A stretch of DNA of 33,794 bases from Candidatus Methanoperedenaceae archaeon (GTDB taxonomy: Archaea > Halobacteriota > Methanosarcinia > Methanosarcinales > Methanoperedenaceae). Position 1 is the stretch's first letter, and every line of letters starts with the position of its first letter. The notes under the pieces were generated by a model. That model ran no database searches and had not been told where the DNA came from. It was given only the letters and a program-made list of their open reading frames with translations. The position numbers and the translations under genes were made by a program. Of this stretch, positions 7,249 through 30,354 are shown one piece after another. Where the stretch lies: contig JACUTP010000001.1 of the NCBI GenBank assembly GCA_014859785.1, forward strand, positions 1 to 33,794, given 5' to 3'.

Positions 7249-7701
7249 CTATACTATTTCGTCCATTCTCATGATAAATGATTCTGTATCAATGTATCCT
7301 GGTATCCTGCTGATCTCTGTGCCGTTGGGATAGAGGAAAACGGATGCTGGAGTGCCCCTTATCCTGAAATCCCTTGTTTCTTCTTTCTGAGTGTTAACAT
7401 CAATTGAAACAATAACGAAATCCTGGTTCAGCTTTGATACGGCGGTATTGTTGTTGAATGTTTCTTCTTCGAATTGCTTACACCAGCCGCAGGATTCCGA
7501 CCTGAAATAAACAAATACCGGCTTATCCTGTGCGGCTGCTGATTCCATCGCTTCCCCCAGGTATGTGCCAAATGTCAGTTTGTATAAGGTTAATGTTCCC
7601 CCACTTTTTGTCTCGTCCAGGTAACTGAGTTTTGGTTCTATATCAAGGCATCCTGAGAGCAGGATGAACAGGATAAGGGACAGTAGTACCAGTTTTTTCA
7701 A
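7249..7701 (-). CDS. Thioredoxin-fold lipoprotein
   Basis: 150 aa with a TTG start (no in-frame ATG near the N-terminus). Lipobox-like 'LLSGC' and 'VFVYFRSESCGWCKQF' CxxC motif. Confidence 0.75.
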   Translation of the reverse strand: MKKLVLLSLILFILLSGCLDIEPKLSYLDETKSGGTLTLYKLTFGTYLGEAMESAAAQDKPVFVYFRSESCGWCKQFEEETFNNNTAVSKLNQDFVIVSIDVNTQKEETRDFRIRGTPASVFLYPNGTEISRIPGYIDTESFIMRMDEIV

Positions 7702-7819
7702 TTTGGATCAGCTTTACATTATGTGTAAAATGATATAAGGGTTGTGGTGAAGCGGGTTAGTTTAAAGTCACTTTTATGTTTAAATTGTCTGCATTTTAGA
7801 TTTATGAACTTGAATAAGT

Positions 7820-8605
7820 TTATTTTTCAAGGCAAATAACTTCCTTATTTAATGAAGAGCAGATTGGAACTAAATGCGGGTCTTTAGTAAGAATAGGCAT
7901 TTCAAGCGGTGCATCTATTGATATGATGATATCACCCAACATAACACAATCATGATTTTCTATTTCTTTATTTTGTATGATTTTTACCAATGATAGACAT
8001 ATTTTATCTACATCATTTTCTTTCTCAATTGGATGTATCACATTATATACATTCTCTAAAACACTCCTCTCTATACTATTATGAAATTTTTCACATCCTC
8101 CACACCCCACTTTAAATAAAAACCCTTCTTTGTACTTTTTTGGTTTAATATAAATTTTATCACATTTAATGACGCTATCAATGAAGGTGACATTTTCTTT
8201 AAATTTAGATTCTAAGCCAAATGTTATTAAAATACGAAGTTTTTGAATAATACTCCTTTCACTTTTATTAGGAAATCCCAGAACTTTCAAAATAGTTATC
8301 CAATTAGCTGCCTGCCTTTTATATTGGGGATTCTCCGTCATATTGTTAATTCTTCTATAAGCCATGCCCAAATCATTGTTATTATCGAGTAATAAGTAAT
8401 AAAGAGAAACACAATCTTTAATTAATGTTCTTTTGAATTCAAGTATACTGAATTTACTTGCATGAAATTTTTTTGTTTTAGATAATTTATAATATTCGGA
8501 TTGCTTTCCATCTAGTTTTTTAAATAATATATTGGTATCAACAAAAATATCCTTCGTACTAAGCGAATGGATTTTATCAATCTTCATATAATTGTGATAT
8601 ACCAT
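7820..8605 (-). CDS. PIN-like nuclease with a large internal insertion (island ORF3)
   Basis: 261 aa. 'KDIFVDTNILF' (D23), 'SILEFKR' (E56), 'MLGDIIISIDAP' (D225/D231) and 'ILTKDPHL' (D242) match the order and context of PIN acidic residues. The insert contains 'GCGGCE'. Low GC. Overlaps the upstream ORF by 29 nt. An alternative start is M7 at 8587. Confidence 0.6.
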   Translation of the reverse strand: MVYHNYMKIDKIHSLSTKDIFVDTNILFKKLDGKQSEYYKLSKTKKFHASKFSILEFKRTLIKDCVSLYYLLLDNNNDLGMAYRRINNMTENPQYKRQAANWITILKVLGFPNKSERSIIQKLRILITFGLESKFKENVTFIDSVIKCDKIYIKPKKYKEGFLFKVGCGGCEKFHNSIERSVLENVYNVIHPIEKENDVDKICLSLVKIIQNKEIENHDCVMLGDIIISIDAPLEMPILTKDPHLVPICSSLNKEVICLEK

Positions 8606-9158
8606 CTAATGAACCCATTGGGTCAAGACCACAATTTACAATTTCATAAAAAATGGTTTCAGTATCATCTTCTGAAATATCGCCACCCTTTATAACATCT
8701 AATATTTTTTCTAAAACATCTATTTGTGGTTTTTGAATATCCTCGACATGTAGATTTTCGATAGAGGTTTCTAACAAGGAAACTAAATTATTCTTTTCAT
8801 CATTTTCTTGAATTAAATCCCAATATTTATTGATGTAATCTGAAAAATCTAATTTGAATTGATGAAGTGTAATTTGTTTATCTACTATACTATCTAAATT
8901 TAAGTACAATTCATTAAGAGACCGCCTCATCTTAGTGATAAAAACATCCTCAAAAGTGTCCAACTTCTTTGGTTTATTTATGTGAGTATATTCCGACTTA
9001 ATATTAATTGGATGGTTTGGTGAATAAACACTACGTTCCCCAATTAAACGCATCTTGCGTGCCCCAACTAAACGCATATGATCTTGCATCGATGGATGTT
9101 GTCCAGATATATAATCGATGTTAAAAGGACTTCTTTCAATTTGAATATTCGCAAACAT
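8577..9158 (-). CDS. Hypothetical protein (island ORF2), no recognised family
   Basis: 193 aa ORF with an ATG preceded by AGGAGA 4 nt upstream. Lies 12 nt after the ORF1 stop. Acidic C-terminal half. Contains an in-frame 24-nt tandem duplication (MRLVGARK/MRLIGERS). Confidence 0.7.
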   Translation of the reverse strand: MFANIQIERSPFNIDYISGQHPSMQDHMRLVGARKMRLIGERSVYSPNHPINIKSEYTHINKPKKLDTFEDVFITKMRRSLNELYLNLDSIVDKQITLHQFKLDFSDYINKYWDLIQENDEKNNLVSLLETSIENLHVEDIQKPQIDVLEKILDVIKGGDISEDDTETIFYEIVNCGLDPMGSLDGISQLYED

Positions 9159-9170
9159 TTTATCTCCTAT

Positions 9171-9800
9171 TTATCTATGTTTTAATGTTTCGATTTCTTC
9201 CAAATGCTTTTTAATTTTATTCAATTGTTCAATAACATTATTTATATCGTAAATATCACATTCCATTATGAAAGTTTCTGTTTTATCCATATTCGGCGCA
9301 TCTGAGAATGGATGACGCAGTCGAAACCTCAATTGTGCAACAGATAAATGTTCTATATCTTCTATTAAAGAGTCATAGTATTTAGTTATAATTGACCAGT
9401 CAAACTTATCAATCAAATTAGTTTTATAGGTATTCTCTAATATAAATTTTTCACGAAGCTGTTTTGATATTAATTTTGTTTTGATTATTTTACATTTTTC
9501 TTTAAAATTAGAATAACCAATTTCATCTGTAAAATCTGATAGTTCCATGTCTCTTTTATTAAGGATGGTTTGAATTAACTCTAAAATACTTTCAATTGAT
9601 TTAACAAAATATTCTTCATCAAGCCCCGAAGACATTAAGAGGTCGTGTCGCATATCACCATCAACTTTAAAACCTATTTGACCTGCATTGAAATAAAAAT
9701 TGCCACCATTCTTTTTTAACAAAGTTTCAACAATATTTACAATTTGATAAAAGCTCTCCATTTCTTCAAAATCCTCACTGTTTTTAATGTTGTTTGCCAT
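9171..9800 (-). CDS. Hypothetical protein (island ORF1), no recognised family
   Basis: The ATG at 9800 is preceded by GAGGTG with 6-nt spacing. The open frame extends to a TTG at 9923, so the maximal ORF is 9171..9923 (250 aa). Lys/Glu-rich and helical-looking. Low GC. Confidence 0.65.
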   Translation of the reverse strand: MANNIKNSEDFEEMESFYQIVNIVETLLKKNGGNFYFNAGQIGFKVDGDMRHDLLMSSGLDEEYFVKSIESILELIQTILNKRDMELSDFTDEIGYSNFKEKCKIIKTKLISKQLREKFILENTYKTNLIDKFDWSIITKYYDSLIEDIEHLSVAQLRFRLRHPFSDAPNMDKTETFIMECDIYDINNVIEQLNKIKKHLEEIETLKHR

Positions 9801-9934
9801 ATCAAACACCTCTATCTGCTTCCCAATATATCCGCGGTACTCGTTCCTTTTTATGACACATCCTTTTGATTTAAACTCCTTGATATACTTGTCTATCCTA
9901 TTTCCTCGTCCTTGAAACAGCAAGCCTTATTATC

Positions 9935-10126
9935 CTATTCCTTCACTGTTGTCCTGCCTGCGTGTTTTGCAAGCACAATAGCCTCGCGCGCAATCTCAAG
10001 CCCTATTTCCTCAAGTACATTTGAAAGCACCATTCCCGCGCCTTCACTAACCCTTCCTGCTCCTGCATTCCTTATAATCCACTCAACCGGTGCAAGCGTT
10101 AAAACCGGTGGTACTGTTCCTGTCAT
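9935..10126 (-). CDS. Archaeal HMf-type histone, C-terminally short (no helix alpha3)
   Basis: 63 aa. 'LAPVEWIIRNAGAGRVSEGA' and 'LEEIGLEIAREAIVLAKHAGRTTVK' match histone-fold alpha1, alpha2 and the L2 loop. The ORF ends at a TAG right after 'TVKE'. Confidence 0.85.
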   Translation of the reverse strand: MTGTVPPVLTLAPVEWIIRNAGAGRVSEGAGMVLSNVLEEIGLEIAREAIVLAKHAGRTTVKE

Positions 10127-10259: not shown

Positions 10260-10577
10260 CTATAATCGCGCTCTTGCGCTGGCTGCTATGAAATCACGGA
10301 TAAGTTTTGCACCCAAGACTGACGTATTGCCTGAATCGTAAACAGGTGCAATCTCGAAAAGGTCAAACCCGACTATATCAGGAGCAAGGCATGCAATAAC
10401 TTCCCTAACATCCCGCGGCGTAATCCCGTATGGCTCTGGCGTTCCTACGGCAAGCGCAAACGCAGGGTCAATGGCATCAATATCAATAGAAAGGTAAACA
10501 TGACCCTTAATAACTTTGCGGATTTCCTTAATAATATTTTCTATACCTGAATTAAATACATCCCCTACTGAGAACAC
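10260..10577 (-). pseudogene. speB: Agmatinase/arginase-family (ureohydrolase) C-terminal fragment
   Basis: The 105-aa frame carries 'VYLSIDIDAIDPAFALAVGTPEPYGITPRDV' and 'IVGFDLFEIAPVYD', typical of the C-terminal half of agmatinases. The N-terminal half with the other Mn ligands is absent, and only a GTG opens the frame. Confidence 0.7.
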
Positions 10578-10884: not shown

Positions 10885-11044
10885 ACGTATAGGAAAGTAT
10901 AAACGCATTTTCTTATCCCCTTGCTGGAAAAATGAGGCATGTGATAAAAACAGCGAACTAGGACGAACTGAAACGAACTCCGTGAGTTAGTTTTGAGTTC
11001 GTATCAGTTCGGTGCTAATAATTTTGCCGTAGGCTTTCTTGATA
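10885..11044 (-). repeat. Copy B of the ~155-nt module; overlaps the 3' end of the PIN gene 10987..11388
   Basis: Reverse complement aligns to 1365-1518 (core 85/88 identical). Contains hairpin arms 10964-10979 / 10996-11011 and the 28-mer at 10885-10912. Confidence 0.85.
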
Positions 11045-11388
11045 ATTCCGAGTGTTCCGGTTATTTTTACTTGCTCTTTTCTTGCTATTTTCCTGGCATC
11101 AAGGTCATCAAGCGCGGCTATCCAGCCATGTTTTTTGGCAAGTGTAATTACTCCAGCTTCGCCATGGTGTATCGTTTTAAGGTATTTTCCAAAATCATGG
11201 ACTTTTTCTACCGAAATCCATCCGCCGTTTTTATCGATGGCGGAAATCATATCTGGAAATATTATATCTTTTTTTACTGTATGCGGGATTATTGCTTTAA
11301 TTCCAAGACGGATAAGAATTTCCTGTAACAGTGGAAGCCTTTTAGTTTCTGAAAAAGCACTTAATACTCTTGTATCCAGTACAATCAA
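10987..11388 (-). CDS. PIN-domain toxin (DUF3368-type)
   Basis: 133 aa. 'MIVLDTRVL' supplies the N-terminal Asp strand. 'HHGEAGVITLAKKHGWIAALDDLDARKIA...ITGTLGIIKKA' is typical of DUF3368 PIN proteins. Overlaps the upstream antitoxin gene by 4 nt. Confidence 0.8.
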   Translation of the reverse strand: MIVLDTRVLSAFSETKRLPLLQEILIRLGIKAIIPHTVKKDIIFPDMISAIDKNGGWISVEKVHDFGKYLKTIHHGEAGVITLAKKHGWIAALDDLDARKIARKEQVKITGTLGIIKKAYGKIISTELIRTQN

Positions 11389-11705
11389 TTCTTGCTCCCC
11401 TTTAAGGTCTCGTAATCTTCTTTTAACTCTTTGACACCTTCAACACCGAGCTTCGGGTTAATGCCTCTTTCAATTAGAAGCTTTTTCATACTTGTTGAAG
11501 AGAGACCTGCGATACTGGCAGCTTTGGCAATGGAAACTTTTTCCTGCCTGTAAAGTTCGATAGCTATCTCTTTCTCATCATAATCCTTGAGGAGATGGCG
11601 CAGACCGTCGCGTACTGCTTCGGCTATGTTGCTGTAAAGCCCTGCGTCTATCAGGCGCTTTATTCTTGTTTCAAATTCCCCTTTGATTTCAACGGTAGTT
11701 GGCAT
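11385..11705 (-). CDS. UPF0175-family antitoxin
   Basis: 106 aa. 'AIELYRQEKVSIAKAASIAGLSSTSMKKLLIERGINP' matches the UPF0175 helix-turn-helix-like core. 'AEAVRDGLRHLL' is RHH-like. This family is the usual partner of DUF3368 PIN toxins. Confidence 0.75.
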   Translation of the reverse strand: MPTTVEIKGEFETRIKRLIDAGLYSNIAEAVRDGLRHLLKDYDEKEIAIELYRQEKVSIAKAASIAGLSSTSMKKLLIERGINPKLGVEGVKELKEDYETLKGSKN

Positions 11706-11910
11706 GTTAGGTCACTTGATTTTTAGTATGTTTTTTCAAGTTAAGTGGTTTTGGAAGGGCATTGTCTCCTTCGAATACGCCACGGAAATCATGACAAGAG
11801 CCATAGCAACAACTACACCCAAAGCTCTCGTAAAGTCATTCGACTCTATTTTAATAGCCATAAGTCTCAAAAATAGAATACAGGTGAAATAATTTAAAAG
11901 TTCTTAATAG

Positions 11911-11936
11911 AAAAAAGGAAGGGGACTAATGCCCCC
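11911..11936 (-). terminator. Hairpin plus oligo-U terminator candidate downstream of the 116-aa membrane protein gene
   Basis: The minus strand reads GGGGGCAUUAGUCCCC (about a 6-bp stem with a tetraloop) followed by UUCCUUUUUUC. It begins ~18 nt after the stop at 11954. Confidence 0.4.
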
Positions 11937-11953
11937 AAATATTCAAACTTTTA

Positions 11954-12304
11954 TCATTCCTGCCTATCAAAAATATGATTATAACCCCATATAATAACAC
12001 TTATTAAAATGGTTATCGTGGCAACTTTTAAAAATATCCCTGTAAAGTTATTATCTGTTCCATCTTTGTTTTTGATATTTTTCAGAATATGCTTTTTCAC
12101 TTTTTTAGCATAATATACTATCAAATAACTACCGCCACCTACACCAGCAAATATATATTTAAACCAGCCTTCTCCTCCTAAAAAGATGTCTAAAATTGAA
12201 CCAACAACAGCCATGCTTACAAGAATTAGTATCGGAACTAAACATTCGTAAACAAGTTGAGTTAATTTTTCATGAAATTCATATATTTTCATAAAATCCC
12301 TCAA
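11954..12304 (-). CDS. Hypothetical small membrane protein (about 3 TM segments)
   Basis: 116-aa ORF in AT-rich DNA with hydrophobic stretches 'VPILILVSMAVVGSILDIF', 'YIFAGVGGGSYLIVYYA' and 'VATITILISVIIWGY'. No family recognised. Confidence 0.55.
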   Translation of the reverse strand: MRDFMKIYEFHEKLTQLVYECLVPILILVSMAVVGSILDIFLGGEGWFKYIFAGVGGGSYLIVYYAKKVKKHILKNIKNKDGTDNNFTGIFLKVATITILISVIIWGYNHIFDRQE

Positions 12305-26441: not shown

Positions 26442-27067
26442 AACCTTCCCTTCATGATAATAAAGGATATTATACTTTGTCTTTATGGGCTTTATCTTTA
26501 TCCGTAGGAAAGACGCATTCCTAAATGGTTTATAAATAATGGAAATATTGGGCGTATTTGAGTCAACCAGAATACATAAAGAAGAAATCCAATTAGGTTT
26601 TTGACTTAAGAATCTATCTGTTTTTTAGCCATAACCTGATTTAATAAAAAGCGCGTCAGATATCGAGACTTTTTAATTTCTTCTGGTTTCCATCAAAAAA
26701 CCAAAAAATACAGTGCACTAAACGCTAAAATTCCAACGTTTCCTCATCCATCTCCAACTAATGGCACAAACATTATATCTATTACTGTTATATTAGTATT
26801 TTTATGTAATACAATGACGCAAAAAAATGAGGTTGCCAGTAAAAAATAAAAAGTCTCACTTTTTAAATATTAATGTAAATCAAAACAATATCCTGCAACG
26901 GGACTATGCCAAACTAAAGCCATATACTGGAAATCCGCACCTGCGGTTTGATGAGGAGGTAGTGGCGAGAGTCACTTCTTTAGTCCTGGATGGCAGGAGG
27001 CTAGTGCACCTGTTAAGGCTGGTTAATAAACTCGCATGGGTTCAAGTGCGCTTTATCCTGTTAAATA

Positions 27068-27942: not shown

Positions 27943-29769
27943 TCACCCAATCTTCTTTGAGTGGCGAAGCTCAACTGCAACTCCTCTTGCAGATTCTTTC
28001 ATCTCCCAGCCCGACATGGCAGCCCTTCCGACCCCGAAAATCTTATCACCCTTAACAATTACCTCATCGTTGGGACGAATCTGCGGGTCTGCTTCAATCA
28101 CTCCGGGTGCAAGAATGGTGCTCCGGGGTATGAAATCGCCAATTGTCACGCTGTAACCCTGCCAGTCACGAAGCATCATCCCTCCCTCAATTGTAAGTGC
28201 AAGCGTGCCGTACTGCGGGATAAGCGTTGCAAGCTGTTTTTTCTCCGAGAATAACTGGTATTTCGGATAGGGCGCCCTGACAATTCCGTCACCAGGCACG
28301 AGCATGCGCCCTGCGCCTTTCCCGAACTGGTAATCAGCAGCTACGCGCATGATGTCAAGTTTTGTCTCATCACCTGAGCGCTTTTTACCGTTGTCAAGCC
28401 CAAAAACCGCATCCTTAAGGTTGTTCAGGGACGTGCGCGCCAAAACGCCGTCATCTACTGTATAAACAAAACCAATGCCCGTTTCTTCTTCAACTGATTC
28501 ACAGATTTCCCTGTATGCACCTTCAACATGCGCGATAATGTTCGTGTATTTATTCTTCTGTAGATACGACTTCAGGCATCCCCCGACCCATGCCCGCTCC
28601 TCTGCATCCCAGTCTCCTGTTACCGGCGTGTCATAATGTGCGGCTGGGTACATGAGTTCAAGCTCGCGCGGGACAATTCCCATCGGGGACGTAATAATTA
28701 CCTCGTGGACGAATTTGCGGTATTTCCCGAGTGCATTTATGAATTTCTGGTGGGAAAGGGAAACGGAATAAGGTTTTTTTGCAGAGCACGGAAGCAGCAC
28801 AAGGGTGTCAAGGTCAGGCGGGGTGTACCGTTCCAGTACCCTTTCTGCAAACCGTTTTATTTCAACCCGGTTCATAGATTCTGATGTGTTGGCATACAAT
28901 GTGGCTGACCTGAAAACCGGCGTCCTTTTCTCGATAAATGAATATTCGGAATCAAGGAGGCGAAGCACGGCAGTCAGCCAGGGACGCGTCCTGCACTGGC
29001 GCTCAACGTATTCGCGAAGGCTTCCAGCCCTTACCTGCTCCCTTACGGCACTAAGCTCGCTTGAAAGTGCAAACGAGTTGTGGCGCGAAAGCAGTTCAGC
29101 GCGCTGTTTTTTCGGGAGTTTTAATAGCTTTTCAGGGACAGCAGCAGAGCACACATCACAGGGGCAGGGGAATTCATGCATCCTGTCAAGATGGAACTCC
29201 CCTGAAGTTGTAAGGTAAATATCCTGGTAACCCTTGATTACAGGTAACGTATCATCCACAAGGTCAGCGCCTATATACACAATCATTGCCAGGTTTTCGG
29301 GTTTTGAAAGTGATGGCACGTACAATATTGAGCCTGATTTTGTGTTTTCCCTGATATTAATTATTGAATCCACAAACGCACGAGGGTTATTCTCAAGCTG
29401 TTTTGCAGCGCCGAGTACGTAAAGGTCTGATTCCGGAAGCTGCTGGTAAAGAGGATGCACGACTAAACCTGTGTGCGCCTCAAGTTCATCGGTATTCAGC
29501 AGGGTTTCATCAGAACTCACTGAATCCGCAAGTCCTTTTACTATTTCTTCCCTTGTATGCAAGGGCGCTGACTTGTGCGGAAGGATGATAATTTTTTCCT
29601 GCGTCTTTTCCGGAATTGCGGTTTTTCCCCACAGGCTCCCGGAATCAACAATAAACCCGTCCTTTTTCCACGGCTGGATTATGGCAGGCGTTGATAATCC
29701 GCCGTCCAGTGACAGCTTTCCAATCCGCGCTGCTGCATCGCGGTGTGTTACTTCGAAGATGTTAGTCAT
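27943..29769 (-). CDS. arcS: Archaeosine synthase alpha subunit (ArcS / TgtA2-like) with C-terminal PUA domain
   Basis: 608 aa. TGT-like N-terminus 'FEVTHRDAAARIGKL', 'LLPCSAKKPYSVSLSH' (DUF5591-type motif), and PUA-like C-terminus 'VIVKGDKIFGVGRAAMSGWEM'. Confidence 0.75.
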   Translation of the reverse strand: MTNIFEVTHRDAAARIGKLSLDGGLSTPAIIQPWKKDGFIVDSGSLWGKTAIPEKTQEKIIILPHKSAPLHTREEIVKGLADSVSSDETLLNTDELEAHTGLVVHPLYQQLPESDLYVLGAAKQLENNPRAFVDSIINIRENTKSGSILYVPSLSKPENLAMIVYIGADLVDDTLPVIKGYQDIYLTTSGEFHLDRMHEFPCPCDVCSAAVPEKLLKLPKKQRAELLSRHNSFALSSELSAVREQVRAGSLREYVERQCRTRPWLTAVLRLLDSEYSFIEKRTPVFRSATLYANTSESMNRVEIKRFAERVLERYTPPDLDTLVLLPCSAKKPYSVSLSHQKFINALGKYRKFVHEVIITSPMGIVPRELELMYPAAHYDTPVTGDWDAEERAWVGGCLKSYLQKNKYTNIIAHVEGAYREICESVEEETGIGFVYTVDDGVLARTSLNNLKDAVFGLDNGKKRSGDETKLDIMRVAADYQFGKGAGRMLVPGDGIVRAPYPKYQLFSEKKQLATLIPQYGTLALTIEGGMMLRDWQGYSVTIGDFIPRSTILAPGVIEADPQIRPNDEVIVKGDKIFGVGRAAMSGWEMKESARGVAVELRHSKKIG

Positions 29770-30033
29770 AATATCTAATAATATTACATAGAAAATGGTA
29801 ATTCAAGTACTCTAAGTGAGATGTTTATTTAAATGTGCCTTCGCTTTGCAATAAGCAAAACAATTTTAAATGTTGGGATTAACTTGCTTAAACGGCAGGT
29901 GTAGATTTGTTAAAGTCAAGAATGAAAGCCAATGAGCTCAATTTATCGATTTTGGGTTATATTGATTCAGCCAGCAGATAATGATATAATTTTATACTTT
30001 GTATGAAAAATCGTATTTTCATATTTATCTATG

Positions 30034-30063
30034 AATCATTTGATTCATGGTCAGTTTCCTATT
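30034..30063 (+). repeat. 30-nt element AATCATTTGATTCATGGTCAGTTTCCTATT, copy 2
   Basis: Identical to 21697-21726. Lies in a 585-nt AT-rich intergenic region. Confidence 0.9.
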
Positions 30064-30354
30064 CGTAAAGTTAAAAAAACAATGGAAGAAAATAAAGAAA
30101 ATCAGCATCGTGCGATATTATTCAGACCCTAAATTAGGAACTATTTATGATTTAAGGTGGGAAACATGGGATAAAAGAGAAATTTTGCAATTGTTTAAGG
30201 GCATTATTGAAGGAACTTTCAGAAACAGATTTTATCTTTTCCGATATGCCTGACAAAGTGGTTGAGTTAAAACCTGTTGGAACATAAAAGGCTAATTATT
30301 TTCTACGACATCTATTTGTATGAATACTAAAGACTTAACTTAGGAGGTAAGGTT

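Follow-up and report, generated by a model that had tools for sequence, protein, structure and literature searches.

In VapBC toxin–antitoxin (TA) systems, the gene for a partner protein lies upstream of, and overlaps, the gene for a PIN-type nuclease. Three-component TA systems, including HigBA with a SecB-like chaperone (TAC) and paaR-paaA-parE, join an extra component to a TA pair. Metal-binding modules accompany the PIN-like nucleases Mut7-C, PRORP, ZC3H12A/MCPIP1 and PIN_11 (PMC5499597), and HerA ATPases enter into partnerships with nucleases, among them HerA–NurA (PMC12977600) and Sir2–HerA (PMC11472057). The present study concerns a stretch of 33,794 nucleotides from a Candidatus Methanoperedenaceae archaeon (assembly GCA_014859785.1, contig JACUTP010000001.1, positions 1 to 33,794; hereafter the window), on the minus strand of which three head-to-tail genes, ORF1, ORF2 and ORF3, occupy an island of low GC content. 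Our analyses suggest that these genes form an intact, horizontally circulating module whose core is a two-protein pair like VapBC, with ORF3 as the nuclease, ORF2 as its inhibitor and the first gene as an accessory, a reading to which we assign a probability of roughly 0.55. The module consists of the following features:

7702–9934, no strand: low-GC island, between a thioredoxin (Trx)-like lipoprotein gene and a truncated histone paralogue
9171–9800, minus strand: ORF1, 209 aa, first gene of the module
9159–9170, minus strand: ORF1–ORF2 spacer, ATAGGAGATAAA, 12 nt, with the ribosome-binding-site-like AGGAGA 4 nt before the ORF2 ATG
8577–9158, minus strand: ORF2, 193 aa, middle gene of the module
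9034–9077, minus strand: in-frame 24-nt tandem duplication in ORF2, MRLVGARK / MRLIGERS
7820–8587, minus strand: ORF3, 255 aa (261 aa with the ATG at 8605)

The module shares several traits with VapBC. In both, an upstream partner gene overlaps the gene for the (here putative) PIN-type nuclease; the acidic residues follow the order D-E-D-D/N, their Glu lying in the helix that follows strand 2, and the best structural-database match of ORF3 is a VapC; and both behave as accessory genes, patchily distributed, fast-evolving and low in GC. There are, however, clear differences. ORF3 is about twice the size of VapC because a helical insertion of about 150 residues, bearing four cysteines, separates the Glu helix from the third acidic residue. 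ORF3 also misses the Pfam PIN thresholds, a third gene is usually present, and ORF2, at 193 aa and with no detectable DNA-binding domain, is unrelated to any VapB family. Thus, judged by its sequences, the module resembles a VapBC pair but belongs to no described VapBC family. Its likeness to the three-component TA systems lies in the arrangement of three apparently co-transcribed genes as a TA-like pair plus a lineage-variable extra component; we know of no sequence relationship between them. Unlike that of the three-component systems, the extra gene of the module opens the operon; it does not encode a SecB-like chaperone and cannot be recognized as a regulator. With Mut7-C, PRORP, ZC3H12A and PIN_11, ORF3 shares a PIN-like core combined with a Cys-rich metal-binding element, the metal being a prediction in the case of ORF3. 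In those proteins, however, zinc is bound by a C-terminal element or by a domain of its own, whereas the ORF3 cysteines are scattered internally (C142...C162-x2-8-C165...C214), and the ORF3 family gave no profile match to Mut7-C, PRORP, ZC3H12A/MCPIP1 or PIN_11. Finally, HerA–NurA, Sir2–HerA and DUF4297–HerA find an echo in ANME-1 archaea, in which the three-gene module abuts a HerA/DUF87 ATPase gene, but this adjacency is confined to one lineage, where HerA has a host-like composition and is under stronger constraint.

Single-sequence searches of Pfam, NCBIfam, PADLOC and PHROGs returned nothing significant for ORF1–3, sequence searches of the PDB gave no significant match for any of the three, and PADLOC-DB v2 had no significant match for the three proteins or for the 48 members of the ORF3 family. 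Profiles of ORF1 and ORF2 retrieved from the PDB only a spurious match to a duplicated chimera (HP0242, E about 1 per domain) and designed repeat proteins. All named public records of family members read “hypothetical protein,” and a literature search found no description of such a module. An earlier reading made from the DNA alone (the sequence-only reading), which had proposed an undescribed system and recognized no family in ORF1 or ORF2, therefore stands on both counts. A PIN-based, TA-like module is in itself no surprise. This one, however, defines a putative PIN-type nuclease family and a partner family that current domain, annotation and defence databases do not recognize. If ORF3 is a regulated toxin, the repertoire of TA and defence systems would gain a structurally unusual PIN effector, whose Cys4 insertion is internal, along with a new antitoxin fold, and the module would be among the few of its kind native to uncultured methane-oxidizing archaea, in which the testing of TA and defence biology is only beginning (PMC13385816).

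The putative nuclease ORF3

When 1.8 billion cluster representatives were searched exhaustively by profile, an ORF3 family of 54 representatives emerged, nearly all of about 250 aa and matched over their full length; the conservation analysis and the final structural model rest on a 48-member family alignment. An AlphaFold2 prediction from four close homologues was useless (pLDDT 44); that from the 48-sequence alignment reached a pLDDT of 91.7 and a pTM of 0.87. The latter model begins with strand 1 (residues 13–16), D17-T18, strand 2 (40–44, ending in S44) and a long helix that opens with E50. A helical insertion (73–130) follows, then strand 3 (133–136) and a small hairpin and helices that carry C142, C162, C165 and C214. 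The model ends with a helix starting at D219, strand 4 (232–234), D236, a helix and strand 5. The PIN order of elements, b1-a-b2-a-b3-a-b4-a-b5, is thus present in the model, together with a helical insertion of about 150 residues.

Conservation across the family falls on the residues that this fold would require. D219 is invariant in the 48 members, position 17 is nearly invariant as D or E and is followed by T, and T18, S44, E50, C142, C162, C165 and C214 are likewise invariant or nearly so; position 236 is D or N. The acidic set of the PIN superfamily and its Ser/Thr are therefore represented by D/E17-T18, S44, E50, D219 and D/N236, each on the expected element of the model. In the VapC-like group, strand 2 is followed by a helical element that contains the catalytic Glu and also forms the cleft for the antitoxin helix (PMC5499597), and the position of E50 matches this site. 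The sequence-only reading had named D23, D225 and D242 (261-aa numbering) as the acidic signature; these residues exist, but the set was incomplete, lacking the invariant E56 (E50 in the 255-aa numbering used here).

Profile and structure comparisons point in the same direction. The ORF3 of the window has no Pfam match at E ≤ 1. In the family, Pfam PIN is the only family to recur, matching 6 of the 48 full-length members (best E 0.002); after in silico excision of the insertion, PIN matched 7 and PIN_12 matched 4 of the 48 constructs, with a best E of 2e-4. A full-length ORF3 profile found nothing among PDB sequences. Among PDB entries, the insert-excised profile matched VapC 3zvk_A best, in a full-length alignment (E 0.016) that pairs the D/E/D residues, and VapC 7by2_B also ranked. 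A Foldseek comparison of the model with the PDB gave no significant match (best E 0.44), although its best entries are PIN proteins; among the top 38, non-significant entries, 12 are PIN proteins (1ye5, 1v96, 1y82, 3i8o, 4chg, 7vwo) or PIN-like HARP RNase P (7e8j, 7e8k, 7e8o), with a TM of 0.4–0.5 on target length. Foldseek of the model against viral structures returned nothing. Collectively, model topology, residue order, weak Pfam PIN matches, the VapC match and the PIN-dominated Foldseek list make it very probable that ORF3 is PIN-like, as the sequence-only reading had supposed.

Several ORF3-family genes are truncated or split (L005, 1479–2087; L019, 1864–2393; L023, 5873–6354; L027, 1364–2108; here and below, L numbers designate related loci). 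These copies represent either pseudogenization of a putative toxin or assembly errors.

The partner gene, the exchangeable first gene and their evolution

A word-indexed search found only three relatives of ORF3, at 76–88% identity, on short contigs with the same triad of 209-, 185- and 255-aa genes, and a second tier of ORF1 and ORF2 homologues at 48–60% identity. In that tier, a metagenome-assembled genome (MAG) labelled “ANME-2 cluster archaeon” (L005) carries the triad after a small winged helix-turn-helix gene, with its ORF3 homologue cut short at 202 aa, and L006 carries a complete triad whose ORF3 homologue is 42% identical. Scans for the ORF3 family in GTDB species representatives and for the ORF1 family in JGI metagenomes, followed by a search of all ORFs with hidden Markov models (HMMs), brought 22 further loci. 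Every ORF1-like gene (window, L001–L006, L010–L013, L015, L016, L024–L031) precedes an ORF2-like gene and, wherever the contig allows, an ORF3-like gene, and the full archaeal triad is found in genomes of Methanophagales (ANME-1) and Methanosarcinales (L010–L013, L015, L016, L024–L031). An ORF2-like gene lies directly 5′ of ORF3 relatives wherever upstream sequence exists, usually with overlapping stop and start codons. The ORF2–ORF3 pair spans ANME archaea, Nitrospirota, Desulfobacterota, Chloroflexota, Rokubacteria and a Borrarchaeota MAG. Thus, in all informative loci, archaeal and bacterial, two adjacent genes occur consistently together, a trait typical of TA systems.

ORF2 has a variable N-terminal region of about 65 residues, followed by a conserved helical C-terminal domain of about 115 aa with the acidic tail GISQLYED (homologues P0013–P0018). 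This C-terminal domain is also encoded directly 5′ of distant ORF3 relatives (hhalign probability 97–98%; L008, L009), the alignment of ORF2 with the bacterial middle gene reaches a probability of 97.8% (E 1e-12), and ORF2-like HMM matches are found in L014, L017, L019–L022, L032, L034 and L035. ORF2 is the fastest-evolving gene of the module, with a dN/dS of 0.36–0.63 in the clade of the window. Its 24-nt duplication, a direct repeat (D2) with 90% identity and a spacing of 24 nt, appears as a gap of 27–30 columns in L001–L004 and is private to the genome of the window. The N-termini of the ORF2-like proteins in L014 (124–726) and L032 (7246–8000), and an extra 82-aa protein, look AbrB/SpoVT-like by eye only; a single-sequence phmmer search of the PDB found nothing for these N-termini and leaves the likeness unconfirmed. 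An orphan copy of the ORF2 C-terminal domain (130 aa, 74% identical) lies at 1828–2220 of L007, a contig that has neither ORF1 nor ORF3 and equals the module in its GC of 27.7%. Its other genes include a 321-aa gene with a faint likeness (E 0.65) to archaeal primase and a 279-aa gene with a helix-hairpin-helix motif. L007 may be a mobile element with an antitoxin-like decoy; its nature as a virus or plasmid is not confirmed, and it has no IMG/VR match.

The first gene behaves differently. ORF1 has strongly conserved motifs, KFILENTYKTNLIDKFDWSIITKY and LRFRLRHPFS...ECD, a dN/dS of 0.25–0.34 and homologues (P0005–P0011) that include ANME-1 and Methanosarcinales versions at E 1e-22 to 1e-26, with eight metagenome loci. 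It accompanies the module in ANME-1, ANME-2 and Methanosarcinales archaea and, by its sequence distribution, is archaeal-specific, lineage-specific and a member of no known family. Elsewhere, mainly in bacteria, a gene of the TIGR04255 family takes the first position in most three-gene loci (L017, L018, L020–L023, L034, L035). This NCBIfam family, uncharacterized and sporadic, shares with ORF1 its place in the module but not its sequence: hhalign gave a probability of 0.1%, detecting no relationship between ORF1 and the bacterial first gene, and a kinship of the two was rejected. L014 and L032 contain neither gene and are two-gene forms. Because the first gene is swapped or missing outside ANME and Methanosarcinales archaea, the comparisons indicate that it is exchangeable and that the universal core is ORF2 plus ORF3. 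The expectation of the sequence-only reading that the three genes co-occur as a unit thus holds at every locus with an ORF1-like gene but does not extend further, ORF1 being lineage-specific and mostly replaced by TIGR04255 elsewhere. A literature search found no paper mentioning TIGR04255, and the module links this uncharacterized family to a gene pair conserved in archaea and bacteria.

Base composition sets the module apart from its surroundings. Windowed GC is 0.27–0.29 over 7751–9750, compared with about 0.45 elsewhere in the window, and the GC of the 1981-bp module, 0.283, compares with a mean of 0.451 for other 1981-bp windows (sd 0.026, minimum 0.372; z = -6.6). The compositional break is found at synonymous sites: GC at third codon positions (GC3) is 0.23 in each of ORF1–3 versus 0.39–0.55 in 15 host genes. 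In other hosts too, module GC is below that of the flanks almost everywhere (0.38 vs. 0.55 in L010; 0.35 vs. 0.44–0.48 in ANME-1). The drop had been noticed from hand counts of 17, 31 and 29 G+C on single lines of sequence, which are exact. Relatives that are about 80% identical in DNA hold the island at the same locus, and thus the block is not a private recent insertion; in ANME-1, moreover, the module appears to be vertically inherited. Of the horizontal acquisition proposed from sequence, the compositional discontinuity is therefore borne out, but not a recent arrival private to this genome.

All three genes have a dN/dS of 0.2–0.6 against their relatives and are therefore real genes under purifying selection. 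The module nevertheless evolves faster than its neighbours, as exemplified by a dN/dS of 0.08 for a neighbouring HerA. Comparison of the window (9605–7773) with the near-identical strain L003 revealed a mosaic: ORF1 and the final two-thirds of ORF3 are 99–100% identical, whereas ORF2 and the first 105 or so codons of ORF3 are only 76–94% identical. Either recombination introduced a cassette here, or the assembly is a chimera of strains that co-exist. Because the swapped cassette spans both, it suggests that ORF2 and the N-terminus of ORF3 must match each other. Defence-like genes neighbour some of the loci, namely, an Eco57I-type restriction-modification methylase (L018), AbiEii (L034) and an AAA_15 ATPase (L029). 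The rare, patchy family, low GC, fast evolution and broken ORF3 copies are together consistent with an accessory, mobile, TA-like module.

Proposed mechanism and competing explanations

In the mechanism we propose, ORF3 would be a metal-dependent, VapC-like PIN nuclease with D17/T18, E50, D219 and D236 as its catalytic core, and, by analogy with VapC, would most likely cut RNA. Its four conserved cysteines probably hold the insertion in place through zinc, possibly through an iron-sulfur cluster, and the insertion probably sets substrate choice or assembly. ORF2, predicted to be translationally coupled just ahead of ORF3, would bind and inactivate it through the C-terminal helical domain. The first gene, ORF1 or TIGR04255, would be an exchangeable accessory that senses the trigger, regulates the pair or stabilizes it. 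A trigger such as infection, loss of the module or stress would release the hold of ORF2, whereupon ORF3 would cleave RNA and thereby arrest growth.

Several observations weigh against this proposal. The module proteins have no significant match to any characterized toxin, antitoxin or defence protein, and a scan of IMG/VR (2.9 million viral contigs) for all three families found no relatives. The PIN assignment is made up of several agreeing but individually weak signals: all PIN-profile matches of the ORF3 family are weak, at E 2e-4 or higher and below gathering thresholds, and the candidate active-site residues are placed by the elements of the model on which they fall. At 255 aa, ORF3 is large for a VapC, as is ORF2, at 193 aa, for an antitoxin, and database and PDB profile searches detected no AbrB, ribbon-helix-helix, PhD, helix-turn-helix or other DNA-binding domain in ORF2. 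Many of the loci cited in support lie on short contigs from metagenomes, and several of the archaeal ones are orthologous, so that independent contexts are fewer than loci. In addition, the divergence of the module in ANME-1 and its constant adjacency to HerA there are atypical of a selfish TA system. Specifically, one and the same HerA/DUF87 orthologue (84% identical) adjoins the triad in each of the seven ANME-1 loci, within a conserved Sua5–S8e neighbourhood; it lies upstream of the triad in L011, L012, L013, L016 and L030 and downstream in L028 and L029. Between ANME-1 genomes, ORF1 is 67%, ORF2 55–60% and ORF3 72% identical, compared with 69% for S8e and 66% for Sua5. Because the divergence of the triad matches that of these flanking housekeeping genes, a long vertical residence is suggested, and such residence leaves room for a HerA-linked, non-toxin role. 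In L029, an AAA_15/AAA_21 ATPase gene follows HerA.

Such a role could lie in the processing or repair of nucleic acids by a chromosomally encoded complex that, as in HerA–NurA, works with a hexameric ATPase of the HerA type; ORF3 would be the nuclease, ORF1 and ORF2 its adaptors, and the function would be cellular, neither toxic nor defensive. HerA–nuclease partnerships are well established, and the ANME-1 loci, with their constant neighbour and housekeeping-like divergence, speak for such a complex. HerA itself, however, looks separate from the triad, because it is more strongly constrained (dN/dS 0.08 vs. 0.2–0.25 for the triad) and host-like in its GC3 (0.53 vs. 0.35–0.37). The seven loci amount to one or two independent events, since they are orthologous regions of related genomes. 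A tblastn search found no HerA in the 33.8-kb window, HerA is absent beside the triad in L010 and in the bacterial loci, so that consistent adjacency is confined to ANME-1-type loci, and a core function would not be expected of a family with so few and such scattered members. We therefore regard this explanation as improbable. Somewhat less improbable, though still unlikely, is a strict antiviral defence system in place of plasmid-addiction TA, in which the first gene would sense infection and ORF2–ORF3 would be the abortive-infection effector. The divergent cassette of ORF2 and the ORF3 N-terminus would then be the outcome of an arms race against inhibitors made by viruses, and the orphan domain in L007 might be such an inhibitor. 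The exchangeability of the first gene alongside a conserved effector pair, the methylase, AbiEii and AAA_15 neighbours, the mosaic of L003 and the orphan domain on a low-GC contig of unrelated genes all fit this explanation. Against it, no PADLOC model matches any component, the defence neighbours are few and anecdotal, L007 is not shown to be viral or plasmid-borne, and in the window the module sits not in a defence island but beside a cytochrome-maturation operon and decayed genes. It overlaps heavily with the proposed VapBC-like module, from which it differs only in the trigger.

The nuclease itself could be questioned: ORF3 could belong to Rossmann-like hydrolases of a different catalytic type, such as those of the HAD superfamily, or could act as an inert scaffold, in which case the role of the module, metabolic or regulatory, would be an unrelated one. 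HAD structures (2jga, 3nas, 2i6x, 4f71, 3cnh, 4jb3, 2fps, 8wbq) do recur in the Foldseek list, in which no match is significant. HAD motif I (DxDxT) is absent, however, the family having a single D/E followed by T; D219 at the N-terminus of a helix, strand 4 and D/N236 form the VapC pattern; and profile matches go to VapC and to Pfam PIN and PIN_12, never to HAD. We thus consider a non-nuclease ORF3 very improbable. Returning to the VapBC-like module, a broader version of it can be put forward tentatively, as a possibility we consider doubtful: an immune or stress system common to archaea and bacteria, composed of a metal-cluster PIN nuclease, an ORF2 restraint and an interchangeable sensor (ORF1 in methane-oxidizing archaea, TIGR04255 proteins in bacteria), with free-standing copies of the ORF2 domain on mobile elements acting as counter-measures. 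If this is true, it would provide the first functional context for the widespread orphan family TIGR04255.

Gene starts, island borders and neighbouring genes

The sequence-only reading had reported three minus-strand ORFs, a 12-nt gap carrying AGGAGA and a 29-nt ORF2/ORF3 overlap, all of which can be read directly from the sequence; the overlap is 29 nt with the ORF3 start at 8605 and 11 nt (8577–8587) with the start at 8587. The latter is favoured by alignment with four related contigs and by their gene calls. For ORF1, the same reading had allowed either 9800 or 9923. Alignment with related contigs and their 209-aa gene calls favour the ATG at 9800, which is conserved in relatives, and the TTG at 9923 was rejected because it lies inside the remnant of the 3′ end of the histone gene. 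Relatives keep a ATAGGAGG(G/A) stretch at the position of the ORF1–ORF2 spacer, and in other loci the gene junctions again overlap or abut. Because of the spacer with its AGGAGA and the ORF2/ORF3 overlap, the sequence indicates that the triad is a single transcription unit. No flanking direct repeats, tRNA gene or integrase were found at the island borders, and an Rfam search of the window found no RNA. A scan for sigma-70 promoters and terminators was uninformative, an outcome to be expected in an archaeal host. The island is flanked by two genes:

7249–7701: Trx-like lipoprotein gene
9935–10126, minus strand: histone-fold gene, truncated paralogue

These flanks recur in relatives, the histone gene upstream in L001 and L002 and the Trx-like gene downstream in L004. 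In the window, the histone-fold gene carries a GAG->TAG change and a 1-nt indel and ends in ...TVKE* after 63 aa; in L001 and L002 it reads ...TVKEEDIRLAVSRTKR*, and the L001 copy is without its N-terminal half. Because the copies of the window and of L001 are damaged differently, the paralogue seems, from these sequences, to be decaying independently in the two lineages. In L002 (GCA_023135475.1), the archaeal histone fragment and the triad contig are binned in a MAG labelled “Spirochaetes bacterium,” probably a binning error.

Beyond the histone gene, a 105-aa ORF at 10260–10577 (minus strand) is a gene remnant that matches only positions 177–277 of the 280-position arginase/agmatinase Pfam model. 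At 10987–11705 (minus strand), a UPF0175-family antitoxin-like gene (106 aa) overlaps by 4 nt a 133-aa gene (MIVLDT...), which is PIN-looking yet has no Pfam match at E ≤ 0.01; from their sequences, the two, which lie about 1 kb away from the module, probably constitute a further TA pair. Further GC minima in the window lie at 26501–27000 (0.34), 11751–12250 (0.33) and 29751–30250 (0.30), the last of which apparently corresponds to an intergenic region flanked by divergent genes.

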